This document shows, one piece after another, positions 18,097 through 32,000 of a DNA stretch of 32,000 nt; the first letter of the stretch is position 1, and each line of letters starts with the position of its first letter. Made by a program: the position numbers and the translations under genes. Below the pieces are notes generated by a model that was not told where the DNA came from, did not search any database, and saw nothing but the letters and a program-made list of their open reading frames with translations. The stretch is from Dongia sp. (lineage in GTDB: Bacteria; Pseudomonadota; Alphaproteobacteria; Dongiales; Dongiaceae), in assembly GCF_041906375.1 (NCBI RefSeq), contig NZ_JAYRJJ010000009.1, forward strand, positions 12,706 through 44,705, written 5' to 3'.

Positions 18097-18310
18097 GCCT
18101 GGCGCGCCCAACACACAACTCTAAAACGTCCCTACGAACCCGATCGGCTCGACAAAGAATCAATGAGTTAGATCGATCGTAGCTCATTAGCGCCCCGATC
18201 GGTAGGTCGCTATTCTGCCGAATGGCTCAAGCAAAAGTCACTATTGGCACGAATGTTGACAGGAGCCAACCCGTGCCCCCTGGAAATGCAGAACCCGGCA
18301 CATTTCCTGG

Positions 18311-19279
18311 TTAGACGAACCACGATTTGGGGGCGTGCTTGCGAGGGCCGCTGGGGGGCCTCTTGATCTTCTTAGGAGGCAAGAACTCCCGGAACACGTC
18401 ATTAATGATCTGCCGCCAGCCGTCGTCGGGCTGCATCCCGATCAGAGTTTGAACAGGGTTCAGCCGCATGATGGAATCCTTGGCCTCCCCAGCATTCTTC
18501 TCCATGAGCAACTCCAGATACTGGGTGAACTTCGTCGGCCAGTCATCCAGCAGCGCGACGCCACGGGCAATCAGGTTTGACTGGGAAACCGTTGTCTTAC
18601 TTTCCCCAGGGCGCATAGCTTTGCCCTCGACGGCAGCAACGACACGGCCCAGGCTTAGCAGAAGCTCTAACTGATCGCCCATTGATAGGTCGGACAGGAC
18701 CGACCCTGGCGGGTGAGTTCCGCCAGTAGCAATCACATGAATCACCTTCATTGCATCTTGGGTCCGCTGATCCACGCTGCGGCCCTGCATCAAGGTGAAC
18801 GGCATCTGACAACGAGGACAGGCCTCGATTCCAGATAATGACCACAGGAATTCATGGTCCGGACAGGAGGGGCAGCTATTGATGAGAGTCCGCCGATGAA
18901 CGTGGCAGGCACTCAGCGGTCCCAAATACCAATTATGCCTGTGGAAAGGACTGTCCACTAAGCATTCTGGGCAGATCCACATTTTACTAGTCCGGACCCA
19001 ATCCCGAAGGATCACCTGGCCGCGAAAGTGCGCCAAGCGAGGTGTATCGGCACCCAGCAACCCGTTTTGGAGAACCTCCCATTGATCACCCAGTGCGTCG
19101 GCAAGTTGGTCCAAGCTCCAGGCAAAAGGTAGTCTCCATATCCGGTCGGCAGCGCGAAAATCAGGGATCAGATTTCCGACGTTTTCAGAACCAAGGATTT
19201 TCGCGGTGCGCTTGAGATAACCGAGGATGCTTTCGCCTTCATATGCCTGAGGGCGGATCGGATATTGTTTGACTGTCAT
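18311..19279 (-). CDS. TniQ-domain protein (solitary, with no TnsA/B/C partners in the window)
   Basis: The N-terminus 'YPIRPQAYEGESILGYLKRTA' fits the P-x-P-x-x-GES-hh-S/G-hh-R TniQ signature. It is followed by zinc-ribbon-like 'CPECL..H(x3)W..C.VHRRTLINSCPSCP...CPRC'. I trimmed the start to the only ATG (19277-19279). The track ORF begins at a TTG at 19411. Confidence 0.7.
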   Translation of the reverse strand: MTVKQYPIRPQAYEGESILGYLKRTAKILGSENVGNLIPDFRAADRIWRLPFAWSLDQLADALGDQWEVLQNGLLGADTPRLAHFRGQVILRDWVRTSKMWICPECLVDSPFHRHNWYLGPLSACHVHRRTLINSCPSCPDHEFLWSLSGIEACPRCQMPFTLMQGRSVDQRTQDAMKVIHVIATGGTHPPGSVLSDLSMGDQLELLLSLGRVVAAVEGKAMRPGESKTTVSQSNLIARGVALLDDWPTKFTQYLELLMEKNAGEAKDSIMRLNPVQTLIGMQPDDGWRQIINDVFREFLPPKKIKRPPSGPRKHAPKSWFV

Positions 19280-19394
19280 TGTTGGTTTGCTTGGGATCGA
19301 AGTTGCTGTGCATGCCACGCATGGAATTTGCCAAGCAGTTCTCAATTTAGGGTTACGATTTCCTTCAATTTTACATGAATTCGATCGACGCGTG

Positions 19395-20225
19395 TCAGAC
19401 CACGCTGACAACGACAGCGGTTAGATTATCATGGCCGCCCCGCTCAATGGCGAGTGACGCCAACCGATCTACTGCTTGGACGCCGTAATCTATCAGAGCC
19501 TCCCAAATCTCATCATCCTCAATAAGATCGCTAATTCCATCACTACAAATCAGATAACTCTCACCCAGCCAAAGTGATTTCCCACCCACATGTGGCGTGA
19601 TCTCTAGCTGAGGATTTGAGCCGCCTAGAACTTGAACTAGCGTGGAACTCTGCTTCTTTAGGCCTAGATAACCACCAACGGTATCGTCCCGAGATAGCTG
19701 ATAGAGCCCAAGCGAGCTAAACGAATACACTCGGGAGTCACCGACGTTAAAGAAATACATCGTCGCACCATGAATCCATAAGCCCGCTATTGTCGTGCCC
19801 ATGCCCCGCGTCTGGTCGGTCATCAAATCGAAGATTTGTCGGTCGACCTCGACGAGTGCTTGAGCAATGGCCTCCTTATTGTCGGCCCTCAAAAGCCGTC
19901 TGCTAAGGAACTCGATGGCGCCATGACTAGCGACCTCTCCGCCCGCCGGGTTGCTCATTCCGTCTGCGACCAGAACGACTCTGACTTCGTCCGTGGAAGC
20001 AGTTACTTCATGAGCGTTTCGCATGGAGTCGGAGGATGCCCAATCAACGACGTGAACACGATCCTGATTGATTGAATGAATCAGGCCCGGATGAGTGATC
20101 GCCCGGATCAGGAGGTTGAGTGAAGCGGGTGGCGATGACGGCCTATTTTCCTTCATTTGGGCTGACTTCAGATATTCGGGCATTGACGAAGGAAGCCGTG
20201 CCATCGATTTGGATGACAAACTCAA
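19395..20225 (-). CDS. PP2C-family (PPM) Ser/Thr protein phosphatase
   Basis: All PPM blocks are present: 'NQDR', 'VADGMS..GGEVAS', 'GMGTT', 'NVGDSRVY', 'CSDGISD' and 'GGHDNLTAVVV'. The start is uncertain. 20225 is a TTG, and in-frame ATGs lie at 20204, 20183 and 20156. Every option overlaps the stop of the upstream TIR gene (20143-20145). Confidence 0.85.
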   Translation of the reverse strand: MSLSSKSMARLPSSMPEYLKSAQMKENRPSSPPASLNLLIRAITHPGLIHSINQDRVHVVDWASSDSMRNAHEVTASTDEVRVVLVADGMSNPAGGEVASHGAIEFLSRRLLRADNKEAIAQALVEVDRQIFDLMTDQTRGMGTTIAGLWIHGATMYFFNVGDSRVYSFSSLGLYQLSRDDTVGGYLGLKKQSSTLVQVLGGSNPQLEITPHVGGKSLWLGESYLICSDGISDLIEDDEIWEALIDYGVQAVDRLASLAIERGGHDNLTAVVVSVV

Positions 20226-21027
20226 ATGTCATCTCATCCTTGTCAGGCTTGATAAGACCGCGAGTGTTGTCGACGATCGCGAGGATCTTGGTGGCTGCAT
20301 AGAAGCCATTGGTGTTTCTGAGTATGAGAATTTGACCAAGCTGCGGCCGACGATGTGCCGAGGAGAAGTCGAAAGTGGCGGCGTCGCCAATGTCGCTTAT
20401 TTCGTGGGCCCCAACAGCGACAGCGATGCCATGTATGCTGGGCTTGTCGTTGTGAGCTTGTATACTCGTGTCACTGGATTTACTCCAATGAGTCTCGAAG
20501 AGATATGGGTCACGTCCCAGGATGTAGACGCCGTTATACGACGAGTAATCGAAAGTGATCGTCCCGCTGCTTGATGTCACATGAGGCGGGGGAACGTCTG
20601 ATGCCTTGGTAGCGAAGGGGCTTATTCCCAGCTTCTGAACTATCAGTGTCGCCAAAGCATAGGGCGTCAGCTTATTCGCATCGAGATATTGGATTGTCGA
20701 GGGCATTCCCGGCACTGGCGTGTCATCAAAGCGGACAGGCAGAACGTATTCTGACTTCTCCATCAGAGCTCGGCTTAGAGCAGAACGACGTTCGTGGCTG
20801 CACCAGGGTTTGTCCACATACTCCTTGGAGATGAACATCACCACATACGATGTCTCAGCGGAGAAAAGCTGATGGAAGAACTCGACGCCGTCTTTGCCCC
20901 ATAGCGTTACTTGGCTGTCGCCGTCATAGAAGACCGGAACGCCAAAGGATTGAAGGGATCGAACGACCTGCTCGACGTAGAGTCGTTGTTCTCCAGCGAA
21001 CGAAACGGCTGCCTGATACTTAAACAT
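20143..21027 (-). CDS. TIR-domain protein with an unassigned ~150-aa C-terminal domain
   Basis: The N-terminal ~140 aa read 'AAVSFAGEQRLYVEQVVRSLQSFGVPVFYD..VVMFISKEYVDKPWCSHERRSAL', which is TIR_2-like with a WCxxE glutamate. The C-terminal half ('TITFDYSSYNGVYILGRDP...GQILILRNTNGFYAATKILAIVD') looks beta-rich and I do not recognise it. Confidence 0.8.
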   Translation of the reverse strand: MFKYQAAVSFAGEQRLYVEQVVRSLQSFGVPVFYDGDSQVTLWGKDGVEFFHQLFSAETSYVVMFISKEYVDKPWCSHERRSALSRALMEKSEYVLPVRFDDTPVPGMPSTIQYLDANKLTPYALATLIVQKLGISPFATKASDVPPPHVTSSSGTITFDYSSYNGVYILGRDPYLFETHWSKSSDTSIQAHNDKPSIHGIAVAVGAHEISDIGDAATFDFSSAHRRPQLGQILILRNTNGFYAATKILAIVDNTRGLIKPDKDEMTFEFVIQIDGTASFVNARISEVSPNEGK

Positions 21028-21284: not shown

Positions 21285-22724
21285 GTGATATCAAAAGTAG
21301 AAGGCTTCATAGAAAAATACTTAGGTGAACTAAGGCAGAACAACGCCGCCGTTTTCGTTGGGGCTGGACTGTCTACTAGTGCTGGCTTTGTTGACTGGGC
21401 AGGCCTTCTGGCGCCGTTGGCCAAAGAGATAAGCCTCGACAGCACCAAAGAGACTGACCTCGTGGCGCTTGCCCAGTACTACCTCAACTCCAAGCGTGGG
21501 CAACGCCACGACATCAATCAACTTCTAGTCGACAAATTTTCAGATTTGCGAGCGCCGACGGAGAACCATCGCATTCTTGCTCGGCTTCCTCTCGGCGTTT
21601 ACTGGACCACCAACTATGATCGACTGCTGGAAACTGCAATTCAGCAGGCTGGTCGTCGACTCGACGTAAAACTCACGGTCAAGGGTCTGTCGAGGACACG
21701 CCCCGGTCGAGATGCCGTGCTCTACAAGATGCATGGCGACATTGAATTGCCCGAAGACACGATTCTGGCAAAAGACGAGTACGAGAGATATCACGTTAGC
21801 CACCAGCCCTTCGTCACAGCTCTCTCGGGCGACCTCGTCGAGCGAACTTTCTTATTTCTCGGCTTCAGCTTTACAGACCCGAACATCGACTACATTTTTA
21901 GCCGAATCCGGATTCAACTTGTTGGCAATCAGCGGACTCACTACTGGCTGACCAAGCGTCGCACTCAAAAGCCCGGAGAAAGCTCAGAGGACTTCGGGTA
22001 CGCGAGGGCTAAGCAAGATCACGTTATCGAGGATCTCAAGCGCTTCAACGTTGAAGCAATCCTTGTCGATGAGTACTCGGACATCACCGAAACTCTGCAG
22101 AAAATCGAGAATCGATTTCGCATGGCGACAGTCTTTGTCTCTGGTGCGGCCGCGGACTATTCGGGCAATGACCCGACCGTTGTTGATCAGGTTCTTAAGA
22201 AGATTGGTACGAATCTCATTTCAGATGGCTTCCGGATCGCGAGCGGCATGGGTATCGCTGTCGGGACGGCAGTCGTCACTGGTGCAGTCGAACAGATCTA
22301 TTCAGATGACTCACGTTCTATCCAAAACAGCCTGGTGCTGCGACCCTTTCCCATTGGGATTGAGGACGCCGCCAAGCGTATGGAGACGTTTACTCGCTAT
22401 AGGGAAGAGCTCATCAGTCAGGCCGGGATCGCGATCTTCATTTTGGGAAATAAGATCGAGAGCGGAAAGCTCGTCGAGTCTCCCGGGGTCTGGCAGGAGT
22501 TCGAGCTCGCAAAGCAGAAGGGGCTCCACATTATCCCCGTCGGTGGGCTTGGCGGCATGGCTGCCAAAGTCGCAAATGAAGTGCTGACAAACTTCGCCCA
22601 ATACTACCCGAAAGATGACGGCTCCATCCGCGCGGCAATCGAAAAGCTGAATGGGCCAATGGGGGATGGATTGGGTTACCTCGACGCTCTACGAACGATT
22701 ATTAACAAGCTCGCAAAGGACTAA
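21285..22724 (+). CDS. thsA: Thoeris ThsA (N-terminal SIR2 NADase plus C-terminal SLOG signal-binding domain)
   Basis: Alignable by eye along its whole length with Bacillus cereus ThsA as I remember it. Shared blocks include 'AAVFVGAGLS', 'DLVALAQYY', 'NHRILARLPL..YWTTNYDRLLE', 'DAVLYKMHGD', 'FLFLGFSFTDPNIDYI', 'ITETLQKIENR', SLOG 'TVFVSGAA', 'LVLRPFP' and 'IFILGNK'. It has a GTG start after GGGGA. Confidence 0.92.
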   Translation: MISKVEGFIEKYLGELRQNNAAVFVGAGLSTSAGFVDWAGLLAPLAKEISLDSTKETDLVALAQYYLNSKRGQRHDINQLLVDKFSDLRAPTENHRILARLPLGVYWTTNYDRLLETAIQQAGRRLDVKLTVKGLSRTRPGRDAVLYKMHGDIELPEDTILAKDEYERYHVSHQPFVTALSGDLVERTFLFLGFSFTDPNIDYIFSRIRIQLVGNQRTHYWLTKRRTQKPGESSEDFGYARAKQDHVIEDLKRFNVEAILVDEYSDITETLQKIENRFRMATVFVSGAAADYSGNDPTVVDQVLKKIGTNLISDGFRIASGMGIAVGTAVVTGAVEQIYSDDSRSIQNSLVLRPFPIGIEDAAKRMETFTRYREELISQAGIAIFILGNKIESGKLVESPGVWQEFELAKQKGLHIIPVGGLGGMAAKVANEVLTNFAQYYPKDDGSIRAAIEKLNGPMGDGLGYLDALRTIINKLAKD

Positions 22725-22728
22725 TTGA

Positions 22729-23139
22729 ATGCCGAGGCGCGTATTCTTTAGCTTCCACTATGACGACATCATGAACGCGAACATCGTTCGAATGTCGGGT
22801 CAGTTCAAGCCGACAAAGGAGACCGGATTCTATGACGCGTCGCTCTGGGAAGAGGCGAAGCTAAAGGGCGACTCAGCAATCAAGCGGCTCATCGACGACG
22901 GTATGAAAAACACGAGCGTCACGTGTGTCCTGATTGGCGAAAAAACCCACGCTCGGCCCTGGTGCAAGTATGAGGTCGAACAGTCGCGAGCTCTCCGCAA
23001 GGGACTGTTCGGTGTTTTGCTTCCCAATCAGACCAAGTACGGCCCGAAGTGGATCAGCCAATGGGCGCCCGTCTACACCTGGGATCACAACAAGTTTCAG
23101 AGTTGGGTCGACCAAGCCGCTGAGAAAGTTGGCCGATAG
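22729..23139 (+). CDS. thsB: ThsB-like TIR-like protein (DUF1863 type), short form
   Basis: 'RRVFFSFHYDDI', 'FYDASLWEEAKLKGDSAIKRLIDDGMKNTSVTCVLIGEKTHARPWCKYEVEQS' parallels B. cereus ThsB. The gene starts 4 nt after the thsA stop. Confidence 0.85.
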   Translation: MPRRVFFSFHYDDIMNANIVRMSGQFKPTKETGFYDASLWEEAKLKGDSAIKRLIDDGMKNTSVTCVLIGEKTHARPWCKYEVEQSRALRKGLFGVLLPNQTKYGPKWISQWAPVYTWDHNKFQSWVDQAAEKVGR

Positions 23140-23205
23140 TCCAGCCCTGATCGGTCGGAGTTCGAGCGTGACATCGCCTCTGGGGATTTCAAAGAAAGAC
23201 ACCGA

Positions 23206-23805
23206 ATGCGCAGAACGTTCTTCTCGTTTCATTACCAACCGGATGTCTGGCGGGCTTGGAATGTCCGTAATTCTTGGGCTGTCGTGCCGACGGAACAGGA
23301 GGACGTGGGTTTCTTTGACGGTAGCGTATTCGAAGCTGCGAAGAGGACGAGCGATGATTCACTCAAGACCTTTTTGCGCGAAGGACTGAAGAATACTTCG
23401 GTAACTTGTGTGCTTGCAGGTACTGCGACATGGACAAGGAGATGGGTGCGGTACGAAATCGCGCGTAGCGTGATCAAGGGTAACGGCCTACTGACCGTTC
23501 ATATCCACGGGGTGAAAAACAAGGATGGAGTTGTCGCGGAGAAGGGTTCAAACCCGCTCAATGCGATGGGTGTGTATAAGGCCCTCGGCAGTATCTATCT
23601 GGCGGAATGGAAAGACGGCAAATGGGCGAAGTACGAAGATTACTCGCTGGCAATTCCCGAAGCGGATCTTAGATTTGCAGCCCCCACGACCGACAATGTG
23701 GTTCAGCTTTCCAGTCACTACATGAGTTACGACTTCGTCGACCAAAGCGGTCGGGCGAACATCGGTGGATGGATAGAGACCGCGGCGGGGTTGGCGGGTC
23801 GCTAA
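23206..23805 (+). CDS. thsB: ThsB (TIR-like, DUF1863 type), full-length form
   Basis: 'RRTFFSFHYQPDVWRAWNVRNSW', 'FFDGSVFEAAKRTSDDSLKTFLREGLKNTSVTCVLAGTATWTRRWVRYEIARSVIKGNGLL' and 'LAEWKDGKWAKYEDY' closely parallel B. cereus ThsB from memory. Confidence 0.9.
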   Translation: MRRTFFSFHYQPDVWRAWNVRNSWAVVPTEQEDVGFFDGSVFEAAKRTSDDSLKTFLREGLKNTSVTCVLAGTATWTRRWVRYEIARSVIKGNGLLTVHIHGVKNKDGVVAEKGSNPLNAMGVYKALGSIYLAEWKDGKWAKYEDYSLAIPEADLRFAAPTTDNVVQLSSHYMSYDFVDQSGRANIGGWIETAAGLAGR

Positions 23806-23862
23806 CTCGATGTGGCGCCGATTGGCGCCGCAAGCATTTGACAGAGAGAGTTGGGAGGAGCG

Positions 23863-24456
23863 ATGCCTTACCTAACCGAAAGCGAAGTAAGGGAAGCCGC
23901 GAAAGGTGTGGTGCTGCGTAAGCGCGCCATCAGTGCGGCTTCAATTCTCAAGGAGTCCGTTGAAGCGGCATCTGACGCCGATACCTTCGATGTGTTTCTG
24001 TGCCACGCATTTCGAGACGCAGAACTCGTTCTGGGAGCGAAGAATATTCTGGAGAGCAAGAGGTTGAAAGTCTATGTGGATTGGATCGTCGATCCTCAGA
24101 TGAACCGTTCCAATGTTACGGCCTCAACGGCAGGCATTCTCCGCAAGAGAATGCGGAACAGCAAAAGTCTATTCTATCTCTATTCCAACAACTCCACCCA
24201 GTCGCGATGGATGCCTTGGGAGCTGGGTTATTTCGATGGCCACAACGGGGCGGTTGCCATTTTACCAATCAAGCCGGATGGCAAGCGTATCGACTTCAGC
24301 CAGGAGGAGTATCTAGGTCTCTACCCTAAGGTCGAAATTCAAGACGCAGACCTATTCATTAATAGGACGACAGATTTACCAGTGCCTGGTGACGACAAAG
24401 CCAATTATAGAGGCTTTGAGACCTGGATCAGTCGGCCGCGGGAACTCCAACTCTAA
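23863..24456 (+). CDS. TIR-domain protein (third ThsB-type gene of the locus, different TIR subtype)
   Basis: 'FDVFLCHAFRDAELVLGAKNILESKRLKVYVDW...SKSLFYLYSNNSTQSRWMPWELGYFDG'. I trimmed the start to the ATG at 23863, directly after GGGAGGAG. The track TTG at 23851 would lie inside that RBS. Confidence 0.75.
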   Translation: MPYLTESEVREAAKGVVLRKRAISAASILKESVEAASDADTFDVFLCHAFRDAELVLGAKNILESKRLKVYVDWIVDPQMNRSNVTASTAGILRKRMRNSKSLFYLYSNNSTQSRWMPWELGYFDGHNGAVAILPIKPDGKRIDFSQEEYLGLYPKVEIQDADLFINRTTDLPVPGDDKANYRGFETWISRPRELQL

Positions 24457-24561: not shown

Positions 24562-26094
24562 ATGGCTAGACTACTTGGCCCTGTTCTGCGCCTTCGCGGC
24601 CACGACCATCGAAACAACCTCTGGCGCATAAGCGCGCTGGTATGTGTTGAGGCGGGCGATCCCAAGCCTACACTATCCTATTCGCTCGGCGTTGGTGACA
24701 GGAACATTCCCTGCGGCCAGCTCTGGGCAATCGACGGCGCAGAGTCTTATCGATTTGATCTCGATGTGCCCCTCACTGATCAGCCCCAGGTTCTTCGCTA
24801 TCGAGTTAGCACGGGGCCGGAAGAGTGGACAGTTCATGTCCCTGGCCAAAACATTCAGCCGCTGTTCGCATTTGGGTCGTGCAACGGTTTTTCGAGCCTG
24901 AAGCTCAAGAAGTCAATCGATGACTCGGATGCGCTATGGAAACATATGGCGCTCCGCCACGAAACTATCGGCTATAACGCTCTTCTATTGGGTGGCGATC
25001 AAGTTTACTCCGATGCCATGTGGGAGCTCATCACCGAACTTGAAGACTGGAATGATCGGCTCTGGAGCGATCCTCTGAAAGGTGTCGTTCCCGAGGGCTT
25101 GCCTGAAAAACTGCTGAACCACTTCTTTATGGAAATGTACTGCAGGCGTTGGAGTCAGCGCCCGGTTCGCGAAGTTCTAGCTCGAATACCAACCATCATG
25201 ATGTGGGATGATCACGACATCATGGATGGCTGGGGTTCCTACAAAGAAGAGTGGGCTCAGAGCCCTGTCTATCGCCTCATCTTCTCTACTGCGAGCAAGT
25301 GTTTTGAACTCTTTCAACTCCAGTCGACGATGCACGATCCGGTATTTATCCCGGATCGTGCGGCAGGCTACAGCCAGCTCTACTATTTCTCGGGCGTGTC
25401 GCTTCTCATTCCTGACCTACGTGCTGAACGGCGGCTTGATCAGGTAATCAGTCCGACAACGTGGAAGGCTATCTATAGTAAGCTCGAAAGCCTATCGATC
25501 GATCCCGATCGCGCACTAGTTCCCTGCCGACATCTATTGGTCATGTCTAGCATTCCCGTCATGCACGCGCGGTTCGGTCAAATCGAGTCAATCCTTGGCT
25601 GGACGCCGGGACAGCAAGAGCTTGAGGACGACCTACACGATCATTGGAGCAGTCGCCCCCATCGAGGCGAGCGCCTTCGCCTGATTCATCGGCTCCTGGA
25701 GTACTCCCGCAAAGAAAATGTGAGAGTGACCATTCTGTCCGGAGACGTTCATGTCGCGGCACATGCGACAATCTATTCTAGTCGGGAGGGCGAGCCTAGC
25801 ACCAAGCACACACTGGTTCAGTTAACTTCATCGGGTATCGTTCATCCGGCGCCCCCAGCGATCATGAGGTTTGCCCTCAACACTCTGTTTGATGATGACG
25901 AAGAGATTGATCAGGGCATCATTGGGCGCATGGAAAAGATGCCGGGCGACGAAAGGCGCTATGTTGCATCGAGGAATTGGCTATCTCTCGAACGAGATGA
26001 TCCTCAACGATCCTTGGGGCGGCTTTGGGCGAACTGGTTCGCCGAAGAGGATGTGGCGCATCCGTTTACGAGGGTGATTCATCCGATCGGATAG
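24562..26094 (+). CDS. PhoD-like / calcineurin-like metallophosphoesterase
   Basis: 510 aa with metallophosphatase blocks 'FAFGSCNG', 'LLLGGDQVYSD', 'IMMWDDHDIMDGWGSY' and 'ILSGDVHVAAH'. The ATG follows GGGGGAGTGAG. Confidence 0.75.
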   Translation: MARLLGPVLRLRGHDHRNNLWRISALVCVEAGDPKPTLSYSLGVGDRNIPCGQLWAIDGAESYRFDLDVPLTDQPQVLRYRVSTGPEEWTVHVPGQNIQPLFAFGSCNGFSSLKLKKSIDDSDALWKHMALRHETIGYNALLLGGDQVYSDAMWELITELEDWNDRLWSDPLKGVVPEGLPEKLLNHFFMEMYCRRWSQRPVREVLARIPTIMMWDDHDIMDGWGSYKEEWAQSPVYRLIFSTASKCFELFQLQSTMHDPVFIPDRAAGYSQLYYFSGVSLLIPDLRAERRLDQVISPTTWKAIYSKLESLSIDPDRALVPCRHLLVMSSIPVMHARFGQIESILGWTPGQQELEDDLHDHWSSRPHRGERLRLIHRLLEYSRKENVRVTILSGDVHVAAHATIYSSREGEPSTKHTLVQLTSSGIVHPAPPAIMRFALNTLFDDDEEIDQGIIGRMEKMPGDERRYVASRNWLSLERDDPQRSLGRLWANWFAEEDVAHPFTRVIHPIG

Positions 26095-26199: not shown

Positions 26200-27111
26200 A
26201 TGAATCGTTCGGCGGAAACATCATTGATCGACGTTTTGGGGAGGCGGCATGAAAAGCTGACCTTGCTTTTGGGGAATGGCGTAAACCGCTACGGTAGTTC
26301 TGGTCGGCACAATTCCTGGGCAGATTTGCTGCTCGATGTTGCAAATAGGCATATTCCAGGTGTTGGCGACAGGCTTCCTTCCGGCGTTACGGCAACCGAA
26401 GTATTCGATCTATCCTGCTTAGCTGCGAAGTCTAAGGATTCGGAAGGCCTTTTGCAGAAGGAATTTTGTACCTCAATGGCTTCGTGGAGGGCATATCCGC
26501 ATCATGAGCGGATCGTGGAGTGGGCCCGGGAACGAGATCATCCAATTCTCACGACCAACTTCGACCAGGTCCTTTCAGAGTCCTGCAATGCGAATGTTTA
26601 TCATCATGGGAACTCGAAATTCACTTACTACTACCCGTGGGCAACCTACTTTGGGCTCGGAGAGATCCAACGCCCTTCATCGGCATTTGGTATATGGCAC
26701 CTACACGGAATGATGCGATATCATCGAAGCATACGTCTGGGGTTGACTCATTATATGGGGGCTGTTCACCAAGCCCGAAGGTGGATTCATCGTGGGGGCG
26801 GTAGACTTTTCTCATCGGCGAGAGCCATCGATACCTGGAGTGGAAGTGGGACTTGGTTGGACGCTTTTTTCAACAATGACCTGCTTGTGATAGGTCTTTC
26901 GTTGGATGAAGTAGAAGTCTTTATTCGATGGTTGCTCCTGGAGAGATCGCGCTTATTCAAGAACTTCCCATCATTGCGTCGCAGAGGTTGGTTTGTTTGC
27001 ACCAAAGACGGCGTCTCCCCAGGAAGAGAGTTGTTCCTGCGGGGCGTGGGGCTGACGCCAATCAGGGTGAAGGACTACCACGAGATTTATCAATCAACTG
27101 GCTGGCGCTAG
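26200..27111 (+). CDS. Stand-alone SIR2-like protein (SIR2_2 / ThsA-N-terminal type, no SLOG)
   Basis: 303 aa. 'LLLGNGVN' sits in the position of GAGxS. 'ILTTNFDQVLSE' contains Asn120 (codon 26557-26559). 'IWHLHGMM' contains the catalytic-position His. 'DLLVIGLSLDEVEV' parallels the FLGFSFTD block of ThsA. Confidence 0.75.
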   Translation: MNRSAETSLIDVLGRRHEKLTLLLGNGVNRYGSSGRHNSWADLLLDVANRHIPGVGDRLPSGVTATEVFDLSCLAAKSKDSEGLLQKEFCTSMASWRAYPHHERIVEWARERDHPILTTNFDQVLSESCNANVYHHGNSKFTYYYPWATYFGLGEIQRPSSAFGIWHLHGMMRYHRSIRLGLTHYMGAVHQARRWIHRGGGRLFSSARAIDTWSGSGTWLDAFFNNDLLVIGLSLDEVEVFIRWLLLERSRLFKNFPSLRRRGWFVCTKDGVSPGRELFLRGVGLTPIRVKDYHEIYQSTGWR

Positions 27112-27130
27112 GCGTAGCGCGTACGCCTAG
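27108..27130 (+). terminator. Hairpin overlapping the SIR2 stop codon, a possible end of the long plus-strand transcription unit
   Basis: CTAGGCGTA (27108-27116) pairs with TACGCCTAG (27122-27130) around a 5-nt GCGCG loop, followed by TTTG. The T-tract is weak. Confidence 0.4.
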
Positions 27131-27246
27131 TTTGAAAGCGACAGCTCCTGGTTTGTCCTACAGCTCTTACACGTTGGGCGAGACGCGGACGCCATCTTCA
27201 GCCTATTGCCATCGGACTGGGGTCGGGCTTATCGGCTCGTCGGCTA

Positions 27247-27708
27247 TCAAGCTGCCCAGTCTCCAGCTTGGCGGGGCGCATTAAGGATTTCGGTGGCCGA
27301 AGCCTGCGCATCTATCAAGAAGGCAAAGGCAAGCTGGCCGTGGGCCTTAGAAATTGTTTCTAGAGCCCTGTCCTCCGCGGTCAGAAATAGCTCCGCGCCA
27401 TTTGTGATGATATATCGAAATGGCAGGGGCCCTAGTGGTGTGTTTTTGAGGTTTTGCCTGAGCTGACGAAGTGCGCTTTTTAGGCGAGAAATCTCAATAC
27501 CGGATTCCAGTAAGCCCTTAATGATCTTCAGGCTAACTACGTCCCCAAATGTGAAGCGGCGGCGGATACCACGCTTTCCTGGAGGCGACCCGGACGGCGT
27601 CACAATTCCCATCCTGGCAAGATAATCGACCATGGTTAATGACAGTCCGCTCAGTTCAGCGGCCCGTTTCGCTGTAACGCATTGAAGAACGATATTTTGC
27701 TTGACCAT
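27247..27708 (-). CDS. MerR-family transcriptional regulator
   Basis: The N-terminal HTH reads 'VTAKRAAELSGLSLTMVDYLARMGIVTP......RRRFTFGDVVSLKIIKGLLESGIEISRLKSAL'. I do not recognise the C-terminal ~70 aa. Confidence 0.75.
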   Translation of the reverse strand: MVKQNIVLQCVTAKRAAELSGLSLTMVDYLARMGIVTPSGSPPGKRGIRRRFTFGDVVSLKIIKGLLESGIEISRLKSALRQLRQNLKNTPLGPLPFRYIITNGAELFLTAEDRALETISKAHGQLAFAFLIDAQASATEILNAPRQAGDWAA

Positions 27709-27822
27709 TTCATAACTATGCTCAGAATTATGATGAATACAACAGAAACTTGCGACTCGGGATCGTGGCTCAGCTATAAGAAGACACGGTAATGTTGAGC
27801 AGGTTTAGTTGGTTGATATGTC

Positions 27823-27840
27823 GCAGATGTCGCTATCTGC
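27823..27840. promoter_or_regulatory. Palindrome cluster in the MerR / unknown-gene divergent region (candidate operator)
   Basis: GCAGAT-n6-ATCTGC (27823-27840) overlaps GCTAT-n4-ATAGC. It is flanked by two ACGGTAAT direct repeats (27785-27792 and 27851-27858). Confidence 0.35.
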
Positions 27841-27916
27841 ATAGCGCAAGACGGTAATCGGTGCTTTGATCGCCCATCGGTGGGATGACGCCCGGTTGAA
27901 TTTGAAGGAGGTGACC

Positions 27917-28384
27917 ATGGCTCTCGACTACGACAGATTGGTCGCCAAAAGCTATCAAGACGTTTTCGGTGACGAGTCCGTGAAGGTGATCGATGCAAGC
28001 GTTCTGGGCTGCATGATTGCATCAGCGTGGATGGCAGATGTATCGGATCACAAATTTCCATCCGAGCGTCTTGCTGCCCTCGTTACGTCGGTCAAAGATG
28101 TTCCAGAGTCCGTGCGGAACTCACTCCACATTCAAGAACGCCTTGAGGGCGACTACCTTGAGGAGACGACTGAGATGGTTGTTGCTGCTCAGTCCGCAGG
28201 CCTAGTCGGCCGTCTGAATCCCACAAGCGTATCCGCGATCTTTAAGGTCAACCCGGTAAAGGCATCTCAGCTCTTGAAGAGTTACGAGCTGGATTATCCC
28301 GAAGAAGTGGCCTGGGTGAAGCGGGCAATTGCTGGATTCCGCGACAAGGAGTCTAGCTCCAGTTCAGTGGCGGAAGTAGCTTAA
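27917..28384 (+). CDS. Hypothetical acidic protein, no family recognised
   Basis: 155-aa ORF starting at the ATG at 27917 ('MALDYDRLVAKSY'), directly after GAAGGAGGTG. It ends 11 nt before the HD gene. Coding status is supported by the strong RBS and the tight coupling, not by homology. Confidence 0.6.
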   Translation: MALDYDRLVAKSYQDVFGDESVKVIDASVLGCMIASAWMADVSDHKFPSERLAALVTSVKDVPESVRNSLHIQERLEGDYLEETTEMVVAAQSAGLVGRLNPTSVSAIFKVNPVKASQLLKSYELDYPEEVAWVKRAIAGFRDKESSSSSVAEVA

Positions 28385-28395
28385 GGTCACTGCAT

Positions 28396-30903
28396 TTGGG
28401 CAACCTTGACGCGCTTCAGGGCAAGCTCAAATCCGTATCAAAATTCATTGTTCCGTATATCTTCGAAGTTCTGGCGCCTCGCCTTATCGAGACGACTGAT
28501 CCTGACTATTTGGATGTCAGCGACTCCAAAGATCTGAATGATCCTATTTGGAAAATTGTTCGACTTCGCAAGCTTGAAGTTGCTCTTTTGAATTTGCCGC
28601 TCTTTCAGCGCCTTCGTCATGTTCGGCAGCTTGGCCTAGCTCATTTGGTTTATCCCACCGCTGTCCATAGCCGTTTGGACCATTCTATTGGCACCATGAT
28701 TGCGGCCCGCCGAATGTACGAAATGATCTTGGCGAACACCGACAAGATCGATCAGGCGAAGGCCAAGAAGTTCGGCGAAATAGCATCCTTTGCTGCGCTG
28801 CTCCATGACGCAGGGCATACGGCGTTCAGTCACTGTGGTGAGACGGTTCTCAGTACAATGCTTCCTGGGGAGTTCTCCAGGATCGAAAAGGAGCTACAGA
28901 CATTCTACTCGAAGGGCGATGGCGCCAAGACATTCAAAGAGAGTAAGCGGCCACCTGCCGCCGAGTTGATTTCGGTCCTATTCGTCCTTTCTCCATCAAT
29001 GCGGAGGTTCCTGACTAACCACGAGATACCTGTAGCTATTGAGCGTTTCATACTCACTGCGGCTGGATTGATAATTGGCCGCGGATACCAACTTGAGGAA
29101 GGCGACGACGAGTTCAATTTCATATCGTCAATTGTCTCCGGCGATCTAGACGCAGACAAAATAGACTATGTGGCGAGAGACGCATATTTCTCTGGCGTGC
29201 CTATATCGGCTGATGTTGATAGACTGATTTCGCAGCTTGTTGCAGCTCCCGTGACAAAAGACACGACCGTCAACGGAAAGCAGGCAGACCAGCATCTCAA
29301 GCTAAACAACAAAACTCGATATGATCTGGGAATTCGTAGGGCGGGCATCTCCGCATTTGAGATGTTCGTGATGACTAGATCTTATCTGTTCGAGCGAATC
29401 TACAGCCACCAGAAGATACGTGCTGCCGAACGGGCACTTGAGCGCACAGTCAGGCTATTTGTCGGTCACCTCTTGCCGGACATCGCAAAGGATGATCGTG
29501 ATAAACCGGAATCAATAAAGCTAGTAACCGAGGGGCTTCAGAAGGTTTTTGATCTATTGTTCGTCGCCACGGGAGACGATGGAGTCCTTCATGAAATGCT
29601 GCGGCACGGCGACTACGAGGAGTGGGCAAATCGAATCCTTCTACGACGCCTTCCAATGCGGGGCCTTGCCATCAATCAGCGGGTTGCCAAGGAGTTCGTG
29701 GCCGATGGAAATGGCACGCCAATGTCCATTCTTCTGCCATTCAAGTATGTCTCCAGAATAGCGACCGACAGCGCTCAGCTACGTGAGCTGGAGACGGAGA
29801 TCAAGGCATCCTCCGGTCTTGATGAATCTGATTACGTTATTATTGACTGGCCGAGCTTCAACCCGGTTAGCGAGAATCCTAAACTTTACGTTTGGGACCA
29901 TAAAGAGCCCAAGAATCTAAGTACGCTGAGCAGATATTTTAATGTTCAGCAGCTCTCAAATGCATATCGCGACGTTAAGCAAACTGCTTGGGTGTTCTGC
30001 TCGCCGTCCAATCGAGTAAAAGTTGGTGTAACTACTGCACTCATCCTCGAAGAGAAATTTGATTTGCTCCTTGGCATGGAGGCCTTTCATCGCGCCAAGC
30101 TCCTCGATCATGAGGTTACAGATTACCTCAATCACCTTTCACCACCGATTGGAAATGAGCGTGGGCGTATCGCATTAGACAATCTCAGACAGAATATTCT
30201 GGATTGCAGATTAATCCCTAGCGTCAAGCAGCTTGAGGAGGCCTTCGCAGATCTGGAAGAACCCGAAATTCCAAGGGTTGCAAATAAGATTGAAAGTGCT
30301 TTTCTCACTCACCCATTTTTGCGTGGATATTCAGATCATCTCGCTGAAGCCATGGCTGTCTTGGCCTTCCTGATCCGCCATGCACAGACGACAATTGGAA
30401 ATTTTCCTCAGCCTAGTCGAAAGGCGCGCGTTAAAGGTGACGAAGATCTTGCGCCTGACGCTGCAAGTGAGGATGAGAAGAAGAAGAAGCGAGAGGCCAC
30501 TTTTCAACAGAGCGTAAGAGAGTTCGTTCAGGCAGATCGAGCAACGAACGCTCGATTTGAGATCATTGACGGCGGACATGTTGGCGGCGGCGCGTTTGAT
30601 TTGGTTTTCCAATCGAAGACGCCGCCGATGGTCTCGGTCGTCGTGGAGCTGAAGAGCGAAGATGCGAAGTACGAAAAGATTTATGATAGATCGGCGGGTC
30701 AGCCGTCTGTCTATGCAACAGATCGATTTGGGCGTGCTTCGATTCTCTATGTGCAGTACAAACAGATGGAAAGCGTCTCTGTCTCGGATACAATCGAGCT
30801 TCGGAGGGCTTCCGGCAGCAACCAGGTAACATTTTGCCTCGCACAAAATGCCTTTGGCGGTAAGCCGAGCGAACGAGGCGGCGGGACGAGCAAAATAGCA
30901 TAA
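28396..30903 (+). CDS. SAMHD1/dGTPase-like HD-domain phosphohydrolase with a long C-terminal extension ending in a putative PD-(D/E)xK module
   Basis: HD blocks: 'PLFQRLRHVRQLGLAHLVYPTAVHSRLDHSIG', 'AALLHDAGHTAFSH' and 'GDLDADKIDYVARDAYFSGV'. The 835-aa length is much greater than I remember for stand-alone dGTPases. The C-terminus has 'GAFDLVF(x12)VVVELK'. The start is the TTG at 28396. There is no ATG upstream of the conserved N-terminal region. Confidence 0.8.
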   Translation: MGNLDALQGKLKSVSKFIVPYIFEVLAPRLIETTDPDYLDVSDSKDLNDPIWKIVRLRKLEVALLNLPLFQRLRHVRQLGLAHLVYPTAVHSRLDHSIGTMIAARRMYEMILANTDKIDQAKAKKFGEIASFAALLHDAGHTAFSHCGETVLSTMLPGEFSRIEKELQTFYSKGDGAKTFKESKRPPAAELISVLFVLSPSMRRFLTNHEIPVAIERFILTAAGLIIGRGYQLEEGDDEFNFISSIVSGDLDADKIDYVARDAYFSGVPISADVDRLISQLVAAPVTKDTTVNGKQADQHLKLNNKTRYDLGIRRAGISAFEMFVMTRSYLFERIYSHQKIRAAERALERTVRLFVGHLLPDIAKDDRDKPESIKLVTEGLQKVFDLLFVATGDDGVLHEMLRHGDYEEWANRILLRRLPMRGLAINQRVAKEFVADGNGTPMSILLPFKYVSRIATDSAQLRELETEIKASSGLDESDYVIIDWPSFNPVSENPKLYVWDHKEPKNLSTLSRYFNVQQLSNAYRDVKQTAWVFCSPSNRVKVGVTTALILEEKFDLLLGMEAFHRAKLLDHEVTDYLNHLSPPIGNERGRIALDNLRQNILDCRLIPSVKQLEEAFADLEEPEIPRVANKIESAFLTHPFLRGYSDHLAEAMAVLAFLIRHAQTTIGNFPQPSRKARVKGDEDLAPDAASEDEKKKKREATFQQSVREFVQADRATNARFEIIDGGHVGGGAFDLVFQSKTPPMVSVVVELKSEDAKYEKIYDRSAGQPSVYATDRFGRASILYVQYKQMESVSVSDTIELRRASGSNQVTFCLAQNAFGGKPSERGGGTSKIA

Positions 30904-30974
30904 TCCCGGAATCGTCGATACAAAGCGGGCCATCTCCGAATTGAGACACTGAACGAGTTCGGGCGGAGTTCAAC

Positions 30975-32000
30975 CTAGTGCCGGGTCATTCCATGCTCTC
31001 GCGAAGCGACTACAGCTTCGACAAGCCGCTCAAGCGTCCGCAGCGACGATCCCTGCCATAAGCGTGACATCGCCTCCATTTCCTCGACCGTGAACGGGGA
31101 TGCCCATCTGGAGCTCAATCCCCGCCGCTCAAAAACCCGCTTGAGCATTTGGTAGCTGATGGCGACCATGTCTGACGGCCTGGGTTCCGGAAATCGGATC
31201 GCTCGACACCGATCAAGCAGCACGCCGGGAATGCCCTTGAGAGTGTTCGCTGTGGCGATCCACACGACGTTCGATAAATCCACTGGGGATTGAATGTAAG
31301 GGTCGACCCATCGCCGCGCTGACTGCGCTTCGAAGAACCCCAGCAAGACATCGAACATCGAGCCATTCTGTTTTGACGTGGACGCTTTTTCCATCTCATC
31401 GAGAAGAATTCCTGGAGACGCCGTCGCATGGCGGCGGATCATAGCCACTGGAAGAGAAGGCTCTCCTGAATGCCATCGCCGAGCCGTGCCGCCGATCGTA
31501 GAGTCCGCCACCCCGCCACATGGGTACGTCTCATTCGGCACTTCCAAGAGGTCAAGAAAACGCTCGGCGTAAGAAGTCTTGCCGCAGCCGGGCGGTCCAA
31601 ACAGAACAGTCGGCCGCATGGTGACATGCTGCTTCCCATATAGACCGCCTAACATCGCCTTGGTCACATCAGCCGCGTGAGGGAATTCGGTCAGCAATGT
31701 GTTGCCAATCAGATCAAGATTGGGAATCGCGATAAGAGGGAGTGCCTTGGCCTCGATTTCCTTGAATTCTCGGCGGAGCGTCGATCCCGCGCTGATGTCG
31801 GTGTTTCCAACTCGCTGCAGCACTACCACTGTCAGATCTTTCGGTGCGGACGGCCCATTTTGTGGTGTAGCCTGAACCTCAATGTGCGCCTCGATCGTCG
31901 CGTCTTTATCTGACAGCCTCTCCGATACCTCAGGATTGGCCTTTTTCAAAAACTTTGCGCCACACTCACACGCAGCTTGCCGCGCATCATTTCGCCGTAA
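30975..32000 (-). CDS. Lon-like AAA+ ATPase module without a protease domain, probably 5'-truncated by the window edge
   Basis: 'VLFGPPGCGKTS' Walker A, 'ILLDEMEKA' Walker B and 'VWIATANTLKGIPGVLLDRCRAIRFPEP' parallel the Lon AAA+ blocks (GPPGVGKTS / LLDEIDK / FIATAN..IP.PLLDRMEVI). The track start at 31949 is a TTG, and I translated the same frame as open through 32000. Confidence 0.75.
   Translation of the reverse strand, partial: LRRNDARQAACECGAKFLKKANPEVSERLSDKDATIEAHIEVQATPQNGPSAPKDLTVVVLQRVGNTDISAGSTLRREFKEIEAKALPLIAIPNLDLIGNTLLTEFPHAADVTKAMLGGLYGKQHVTMRPTVLFGPPGCGKTSYAERFLDLLEVPNETYPCGGVADSTIGGTARRWHSGEPSLPVAMIRRHATASPGILLDEMEKASTSKQNGSMFDVLLGFFEAQSARRWVDPYIQSPVDLSNVVWIATANTLKGIPGVLLDRCRAIRFPEPRPSDMVAISYQMLKRVFERRGLSSRWASPFTVEEMEAMSRLWQGSSLRTLERLVEAVVASREHGMTRH

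Follow-up and report, generated by a model that had tools for sequence, protein, structure and literature searches.

A PP2C phosphatase gene paired with an orphan TniQ gene, directly behind a TIR gene, in a low-GC island of Dongia

Three adjacent genes and their predicted products

We analysed a stretch of 32,000 nucleotides (nt) of the Dongia sp. contig NZ_JAYRJJ010000009.1 (positions 12,706 to 44,705), hereafter the window, and within it three minus-strand genes between window positions 18,311 and 21,027. In the order of transcription, these encode a protein with an N-terminal TIR domain and an all-beta C-terminal domain, here termed TIR-beta; a serine/threonine phosphatase of the PP2C/PPM family; and an orphan, short protein of the TniQ family (Table 1).

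For TIR-beta, we identified a match to Pfam TIR_2 over residues 8-120 (E = 3.9e-15), and the best Foldseek matches for the TIR part of an AlphaFold2 (AF2) model were AbTir, BtpA and PdTIR. The putative catalytic residue, Glu79, lies within the sequence PWCSHERR (residues 74-81, containing the WCxxE motif; Glu79 codon at nt 20791-20793), and its alignment column is conserved across the homologues that retain the TIR domain. The C-terminal domain is predicted to consist entirely of strands, with values of 85-96, approximately, for the predicted local distance difference test (pLDDT). It gave no Pfam match at E<=10, and a profile search of the PDB recovered only a marginal match to a Tudor domain (0.038). 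Foldseek searches with the full-length model likewise left it unmatched, the PDB matches being dominated by the TIR domain and BFVD yielding nothing significant. We nevertheless identified 11 homologues of this domain at 45-54% identity, of which most also have a TIR domain and some do not. Compared with its orthologues, TIR-beta has a ratio of nonsynonymous to synonymous substitution rates (dN/dS) of 0.06-0.08.

The PP2C gene ends with a stop codon at 19395-19397 and has in-frame start codons at 20225 (TTG), 20204 (ATG), 20183 (ATG, giving 262 amino acids) and 20156 (ATG), of which we favour the last because P0005, an 89%-identical homologue, begins MKENRP. Its product matches Pfam PP2C_2 (E = 1.7e-8), NCBIfam Stp1_PP2C (5.5e-32) and, in the PDB, the phosphatase PstP (2cm1, E = 8.9e-17). 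The motifs NQD, ADG, GMGTT, GDSR, SDG and HDN are all present, and the metal-site aspartates D32, D65, D140, D206 and D243 are intact and align with those of PstP and the wider family. Judged by its sequence, this protein appears to be an ordinary Ser/Thr phosphatase of the PstP/Stp1 type, and a catalytically plausible one.

For TniQ, the real start is the ATG at 19279, not the TTG at 19411 with which the open reading frame begins. The protein matches Pfam TniQ (E = 1e-11), the PADLOC model TniQ_IF (2.9e-16) and, by PDB profile search, the TniQ of 7u5d (E = 4.8e-36). Its N-terminus carries the motif P-x-P-x-x-GES, followed by two zinc ribbons, C103/C106/C125/H128 and C136/C139/C154/C157 (nt 18809-18973), whose eight ligands are invariant in 41 relatives. 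The AF2 model (pLDDT 90) has as its top Foldseek matches the TniQ proteins 6v9p and 6v9q of the type I-F CRISPR-associated transposon (CAST), with E = 3e-7, around 300 aligned columns and a probability of 1.0.

A first-pass annotation, made from the letters of the window, had proposed much of this, and its description of the genes was borne out. All three reading frames are real and intact, the TIR with its catalytic glutamate, the PP2C with its full metal site and the TniQ with its zinc ribbons. Every candidate start of the PP2C gene (20156-20225) lies upstream of the TIR-beta stop codon (20143-20145), so that the overlap it reported between these genes is correct, and the AF2 model together with the Pfam, PDB and BFVD searches agrees with its view of the TIR C-terminal domain as beta-rich and unrecognised. 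It was also right that the trio belongs to no named system covered by PADLOC, Pfam, NCBIfam or a literature search. NCBIfam and Pfam returned only generic family names for the three proteins, and PADLOC returned only CAST-associated models for TniQ, nothing for PP2C even at E<=1, and for TIR-beta weak matches limited to the TIR domain (PDC-S66 at 27 bits; ThsB at 20 bits, 8.2e-5). The literature search found nothing relevant on TniQ with PP2C, TIR, phosphatases, defence or exaptation, nor on PP2C with Thoeris.

Table 1. Positions in the window of the three genes, their parts and the neighbouring features.
Feature	Window positions	Strand	Basis
TIR-beta gene, 294 amino acids, N-terminal TIR and all-beta C-terminal domain	20143..21027	-	Open reading frame; Pfam TIR_2
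TIR domain, residues ~4-135	20623..21018	-	Pfam; AF2/Foldseek; homologue alignment
C-terminal beta-rich domain, residues ~150-290 (~140 amino acids)	20158..20580	-	AF2 model; 11 homologues
Overlap of TIR-beta stop and PP2C start, 14 nt	20143..20156	-	Sequence reading
PP2C/PPM Ser/Thr phosphatase gene, 253 amino acids from ATG 20156	19395..20156	-	Pfam, NCBIfam, PDB profile
His-for-Arg stretch, PP2C residues 26-32	20061-20081	-	Alignment with P0005 and relatives
Orphan short TniQ gene, 322 amino acids, two zinc ribbons and helical C-terminal half	18311..19279	-	Pfam, PADLOC, PDB, AF2
Conserved non-coding segment, ~140 bp, just past the TniQ stop, at the island edge	18120..18262	-	Nucleotide comparison
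Type I Thoeris locus (ThsA and three ThsB genes)	21285..24456	+	Context, outside the module; PADLOC, Pfam
ThsA, SIR2 and SLOG domains	21285-22724	+	PADLOC 2.8e-179

The PP2C–TniQ pair and TIR-beta as separable cassettes

We identified adjacent, co-directional PP2C and TniQ genes in three sublineages: that of the window; that of the loci L001, L002, L003, L006 and L008, in which TniQ is 85-86% and PP2C 53-55% identical to the window proteins; and that of the loci L005 and L007, in which the corresponding identities are 38-39% and 40-42%. The pair occurs without a TIR gene in L005 and L007, which have in common only a block of 1.85 kb (L005 2979-4828, 83% nucleotide identity), made up of approximately 105 nt of upstream sequence, the PP2C gene and the TniQ gene, and set in unrelated flanks. 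Neither an AAA+ regulator (TnsC/TniB) nor a DDE transposase (TnsB/TniA) was found beside the pair in L001, L005, L006 or L007. Both genes are under purifying selection, with dN/dS in the unsaturated comparisons of 0.12-0.21 for PP2C and 0.09-0.13 for TniQ. In a neighbour-joining tree of 120 PP2C homologues, the TniQ-linked phosphatases, including that of the window, form an exclusive clade, and the next relatives, at around 40% identity, lie either in an ordinary operon of the FHA-PP2C-kinase type or downstream of an AAA gene resembling ClpB. The PP2C gene is co-inherited with TniQ as a mobile pair.

One of these more distant relatives merits separate mention. In L009 (4619-8813), a 40%-identical PP2C gene overlaps the stop codon of a ClpB-like AAA_2 gene (634 amino acids), itself preceded by a gene for an unassigned protein of 487 amino acids; this kinase-less operon may be a distinct conflict system.

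TIR-beta, on its own, occurs on plasmids and chromosomes across several phyla. Homologues along the whole protein, 47-55% identical, stand as single genes in the loci L011, L012 and L013, the first two of which share only this gene. Further solitary copies were found on 14-kb plasmids of Croceicoccus and Prescottella equi, and a solitary protein of 329 amino acids on an Asticcacaulis plasmid, annotated as hypothetical, carries the beta domain. None of PP2C, TniQ and ThsA was found beside TIR-beta in L011-L013 or in the plasmid copies. TIR-beta is a separable single-gene module.

The two cassettes also meet differently in different lineages. In L001, L006 and L008, a 77%-identical TIR-beta gene is followed by genes for proteins of 108 and 324 amino acids and only then by PP2C, and what precedes it is not Thoeris but a SMODS/SAVED locus with a DUF1883-TIR gene. 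In L001, 11 nt of the 324-amino-acid gene likewise extend over the start of PP2C. At the nucleotide level, the window is homologous to L001, L006 and L008 over 21121-20199, corresponding to the TIR gene, and over 19547-18120, comprising the 3' end of PP2C, TniQ and the segment downstream; in between, the homology is lost. When the window is compared with L001, synonymous divergence (dS) reaches 1.84 in the TIR gene and 0.81 in TniQ, and is saturated in PP2C. Because homology breaks at the junction and dS differs by gene, we consider the operon of the window to be a mosaic, and the direct overlap of TIR-beta and PP2C to be specific to the lineage of the window. The comparison of gene neighbourhoods, which the first-pass annotation had proposed as a check on co-occurrence, does not support an obligate trio of TIR-beta, PP2C and TniQ. 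Since TIR-beta is found solo elsewhere, the pair recurs without a TIR gene and the junction differs in relatives, we conclude that PP2C and the orphan TniQ are a conserved unit, and one that is so far undescribed.

The genes around these cassettes in the related loci have features of their own. In L001 (3337-7655), and also in L002, L003, L006 and L008, genes for a SMODS+AGS_C protein (486 amino acids), a SAVED protein (370 amino acids) and a DUF1883-TIR protein (265 amino acids) precede TIR-beta. All four genes are co-directional, with gaps of 5-43 nt, in a locus that resembles a cyclic-oligonucleotide-based anti-phage signalling system (CBASS) with two separate TIR proteins. Unannotated proteins of 324 and of 234/260 amino acids flank the PP2C–TniQ pair (L001 8149-9123 and 10999-11781; L005 4909-5613). 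They bear an N-terminal CxxC...H...C zinc-ribbon motif, CoiA-like by eye, and a weak match to DUF7830 (5e-4), with no above-threshold match in Pfam and no assignment in PADLOC, NCBIfam or the PDB. We considered these proteins as swappable effectors around a PP2C–TniQ core, an idea that is weakened by homologues of the 260-amino-acid family that are solo hypothetical genes on unrelated plasmids of Psychrobacter, Cupriavidus, Ralstonia and Bacillus. The zinc-ribbon proteins, too, look like independent cassettes.

We investigated the wider distribution of the TniQ subfamily. An exhaustive HMMER profile search of 1.84 billion representative sequences recovered 3,801 TniQ proteins at E<=1e-3 and six at E<=1e-30; two of these six are PP2C-linked 50%-identity clusters, and they are the only ones with that architecture. 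A census of the subfamily recovered one locus in GTDB genomes, in another Dongia metagenome-assembled genome, one distant locus without PP2C in JGI metagenomes, and none in IMG/VR. A plasmid candidate obtained by tblastn, from Azospirillum, proved to be an ordinary TniA-TniB-TniQ element, in which TniQ has its transposition partners. The PP2C–TniQ cassette is therefore extremely rare, which limits its significance. The nearest longer relative of the window TniQ, P0139 (608 amino acids), lies in a canonical TnsA-TnsB-TniB-TniQ operon. Because the short relatives do not, we conclude that the short TniQs are orphan derivatives of Tn7-like target selectors.

The low-GC island, its edge and the neighbouring Thoeris locus

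The left 18 kb of the window contain housekeeping and sugar-metabolism genes. At around 18.1 kb the guanine-plus-cytosine (GC) content falls from approximately 0.62 to approximately 0.52, and it remains low to around 31 kb. This low-GC island holds the three minus-strand genes and, divergent from them, a complete type I Thoeris locus. The ThsA gene lies 257 bp from the TIR-beta gene, and the three ThsB genes that accompany it have PADLOC matches of 2.8e-39, 1.3e-55 and 2.9e-63; Pfam identifies STALD, SIR2_2 and ThsB_TIR within the locus. Searches for promoters and terminators gave background levels, and megablast of 17.5-26.5 kb against PLSDB returned no match that would point to a plasmid origin.

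Just past the TniQ stop codon, at the edge of the island, we identified a conserved non-coding segment of approximately 140 bp, which shows 70-80% identity with L001 16293-16434 and with a pair of copies in L006 (9016-9160 and 12290-12429). The L001 copy abuts a serine recombinase gene, and those of L006 flank an insert with a fragment of an IS3 insertion sequence. Within the segment, the motif AATAGYGAC occurs twice in direct orientation, at a distance of 31 bp, and a third copy of the motif, inverted, is present at 29757-29765, giving three occurrences in the window against 0.3 expected. We saw no counterpart of the segment beside the pair in L005 and L007. As a structured RNA the segment was rejected, there being no match in Rfam and weak covariation. 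It may represent an island or element end, or a recombinase site, and its membership in the module is uncertain.

The first-pass annotation had described the TniQ as solitary, with no kinase, no transposition genes and no transposon end nearby. We found no TnsA, TnsB or TnsC, no DDE transposase and no Hanks kinase in any sizeable open reading frame of the window, and no recombinase in its 32 kb, in keeping with most of this description; the solitary state of the protein accords also with the contrast between P0139 and its short relatives. Only the absence of an element end is not fully safe, because the 140-bp segment with its direct motifs follows TniQ. No inverted-repeat pair of note was found at 17-32 kb, the far end of the island lying outside the window.

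Several further genes of the island, downstream of Thoeris, are of possible interest. Directly behind the three ThsB genes, and co-directional with them, is a gene for a PhoD_2-family phosphodiesterase/phosphatase (24562-26094, 510 amino acids, Pfam 5.5e-37, no PADLOC match), which could be an accessory or signal-degrading partner of Thoeris. The region 26200-31949 contains other candidate defence genes, none of which falls into a named system. They encode a SIR2_2-like protein (303 amino acids, sub-threshold), a MerR regulator on the minus strand, a protein of 172 amino acids without assignment, an HD + HD_assoc_2 protein (835 amino acids, weak PADLOC dGTPase match, 2.3e-6) and an AAA ATPase (324 amino acids, weak IetA matches).

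Interpretation and comparison with known systems

On balance, we think that the three genes probably represent two independent cassettes whose junction is specific to this lineage, within a low-GC defence island of the Dongia sp. chromosome, and we infer a mechanism for the second. The first cassette would be TIR-beta, with the TIR domain and its Glu79 as the NAD-cleaving or signal-making part, and the beta domain of approximately 140 amino acids as a sensing or assembly part. The second would be PP2C with the orphan TniQ, two genes that form a rare unit and move together as a block of approximately 1.85 kb. TniQ could supply recognition or serve as an adaptor, the part that it plays with TnsC, Cascade and target DNA; it would bind an invader-derived or host nucleoprotein or AAA+ complex and then position or gate PP2C, which would strip Ser/Thr phosphates set by a host or phage kinase. 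In the window genome this cassette lies directly behind TIR-beta with a start/stop overlap, which, at the level of sequence, suggests translational coupling and would have the three genes co-expressed. The co-translation of TIR-beta with PP2C may or may not reflect functional coupling. The surroundings of these TniQ genes have the character of defence islands, with Thoeris in the window, SMODS/SAVED in L001 and L005, and Abi_C, T5orf172 and HsdM beside the more distant orphan TniQ of L014. The cassette is probably directed against phages or mobile elements; what we infer, tentatively, is a defence role, a physical complex of PP2C with TniQ and a functional link to TIR-beta or ThsA.

Several observations weigh against this explanation. 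The more distant orphan TniQs P0136 and P0138 (L010) lack a PP2C, and the PP2C_2 gene beside the TniQ of L014 (P0137) is convergent and unrelated. The pair is known from three sublineages only, possibly all of related alphaproteobacteria, so that its co-inheritance could in part be shared descent, and the two-gene unit has neither a kinase nor an obvious toxic effector. The phosphatase of the window reads LIHSINQD where P0005 has LARSINQD, a histidine replacing the phosphate-binding arginine that its relatives keep, and DGMSN (19953-19967) where the canonical sequence is DGMGG; its activity could be reduced by these changes. Lastly, the tight overlap of TIR-beta and PP2C is compatible with a real functional coupling in the lineage of the window.

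One alternative is that the three genes constitute a single obligate defence system in which TniQ senses, PP2C switches and TIR is the effector; the first-pass annotation had raised a version of it as an independent three-gene module. The genes are co-directional, their 14-nt TIR/PP2C overlap is tight, members of the three families also occur in synteny in L001, L006 and L008, and all three genes are under purifying selection. We nonetheless consider a system of this kind distinctly unlikely, and the proposed module was not supported: L005 and L007, whose only shared sequence is the PP2C–TniQ pair, have no TIR gene with it; TIR-beta stands alone in at least five other contexts, as does the beta-domain protein of Asticcacaulis; two unrelated genes are interposed in the syntenic relatives; and dS among the three genes differs approximately two-fold or more. 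A more specific proposal holds that PP2C–TniQ is an undescribed, self-contained immunity cassette of two genes. Here TniQ would target AAA+ or nucleoprotein complexes of invaders, for instance ATPases of the TnsC/TniB/MuB type from transposons and transposable phages, and would direct the phosphatase against the invader complex or against a phosphorylation-dependent step of takeover, and in Dongia the cassette would be wired by translational coupling to the TIR NADase as its effector. We regard this proposal as speculative and rather unlikely. As to the neighbouring ThsA, TIR-beta might be a fourth, divergent sensor of the ThsB type that makes a cyclic ADP-ribose (cADPR) isomer signal, with PP2C–TniQ as bystander or modulator. 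Thoeris loci commonly carry several ThsB genes, and the one in the window already has three; the TIR-beta and ThsA genes are divergent and 257 bp apart; PADLOC gives a weak ThsB match (8.2e-5); and, by structure, the TIR domain comes closest to AbTir, which produces cADPR isomers. TIR-beta, however, has no match to Pfam ThsB_TIR (PF08937), unlike the three true ThsB genes, its 77%-identical orthologues adjoin SMODS/SAVED and a DUF1883-TIR gene and not ThsA, and its more distant homologues are solo. Three features of a ThsB could be examined, and of these TIR-beta shows the TIR domain with its glutamate and lacks two, the ThsB-profile match and the linkage to ThsA, its orthologues lying beside SMODS/SAVED or alone and adjoining ThsA only in the window. 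We therefore judge a fourth ThsB unlikely, and the earlier suggestion that the module is an input arm to ThsA was not supported.

Two further explanations would deny the pair a role in defence. TniQ could be a degenerating remnant of a Tn7-like or Tn5053-like transposon, with PP2C as its former cargo, the two having no current joint function. TniQ is by origin a transposon protein, its nearest long relative lies in a TnsABC-TniQ operon, and rve-type transposase fragments precede the orphan TniQ of L014. Decay is nonetheless very improbable, given the low dN/dS of TniQ (0.09-0.13), its invariant zinc ligands, the confident full-length fold that it has kept, and the persistence of the pair, with order and orientation unchanged, within unrelated flanks at protein identities of 38-40%. 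Alternatively, PP2C–TniQ may serve the mobility or target choice of the island, together with a recombinase or helper transposon that would use the conserved terminal segment. In the window and in L006, the TniQ gene is the last one ahead of this segment with its two direct motifs; the segment abuts a serine recombinase gene in L001; and its two copies in L006 flank an insert that contains an insertion sequence. This we find quite improbable, since we found no such segment next to the L005/L007 pair and no recombinase or transposase in the 32-kb window, and a role in mobility leaves the phosphatase unexplained. From what is known of Tn5053 and Tn402, we are aware of no TniQ that works with serine recombinases of the L001 kind without TniA and TniB.

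If the pair is functional, then TniQ would act outside transposition, with a kinase-less Ser/Thr phosphatase in defence islands; bacterial immunity would gain a new kind of sensor or adaptor, and PP2C enzymes a further role. We have in any case defined a widespread single-gene TIR family whose beta domain is unclassified and which occurs on plasmids of Proteobacteria and Actinomycetota, and the exact bounds of a clonable PP2C–TniQ cassette of 1.85 kb, both of which are missed by annotation pipelines.

Set against known systems, the PP2C–orphan-TniQ pairing and the architecture of TIR-beta are undescribed in the resources searched, and are built from well-known domains. To our knowledge, TniQ is known only as a target-selecting adaptor of Tn7-like and CRISPR-associated transposons. 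The TniQ of the window shares with the TniQ/TnsD selectors of Tn7-like elements, Tn5053 and CAST (6v9p, 6v9q, 7u5d) its Pfam family, the P-x-P-x-x-GES motif, the two zinc ribbons and a fold that matches over the whole length. In contrast to them, it has no TnsC/TniB, TnsB/TniA, TnsA, Cascade or Cas12k nearby, it lacks the C-terminal extension of approximately 280 residues seen in P0139 (322 against 608 amino acids), and it is preceded by a PP2C gene, as are the TniQ genes of L001, L005 and L007.

The phosphatase can be compared with PstP, Stp1 and PppA, which are paired with Hanks kinases or belong to FHA-PP2C-kinase operons; it is clearly homologous to PstP and the Stp1 family and keeps the metal motifs, and it differs in an operon without kinase or FHA genes, in having TniQ as its partner, and in the exchange of the phosphate-binding arginine for histidine. 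With TerY-P (Gao_TerY, comprising a TerY vWA protein, a PP2C and a Ser/Thr kinase) it shares the presence of PP2C in a defence-island setting, although the window contains no vWA/TerY and no Pkinase, and the phosphatase has no PADLOC match at E<=1.

Finally, TIR-beta resembles the sensors of type I Thoeris in its catalytic glutamate and in adjoining a bona fide ThsA, in a system for which loci with several TIR genes are typical, but it misses the ThsB_TIR profile, has orthologues that are not linked to ThsA and possesses a C-terminal beta domain of its own. It is likewise comparable to PDC-S66 and the TIR NADases AbTir, BtpA and PdTIR, with a TIR domain of the AbTir/BtpA type and a single-gene organisation elsewhere. 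PDC-S66, matched only weakly (27 bits), has its TIR domain at the C-terminus (149-240 of a 282-residue profile), whereas that of TIR-beta is N-terminal.

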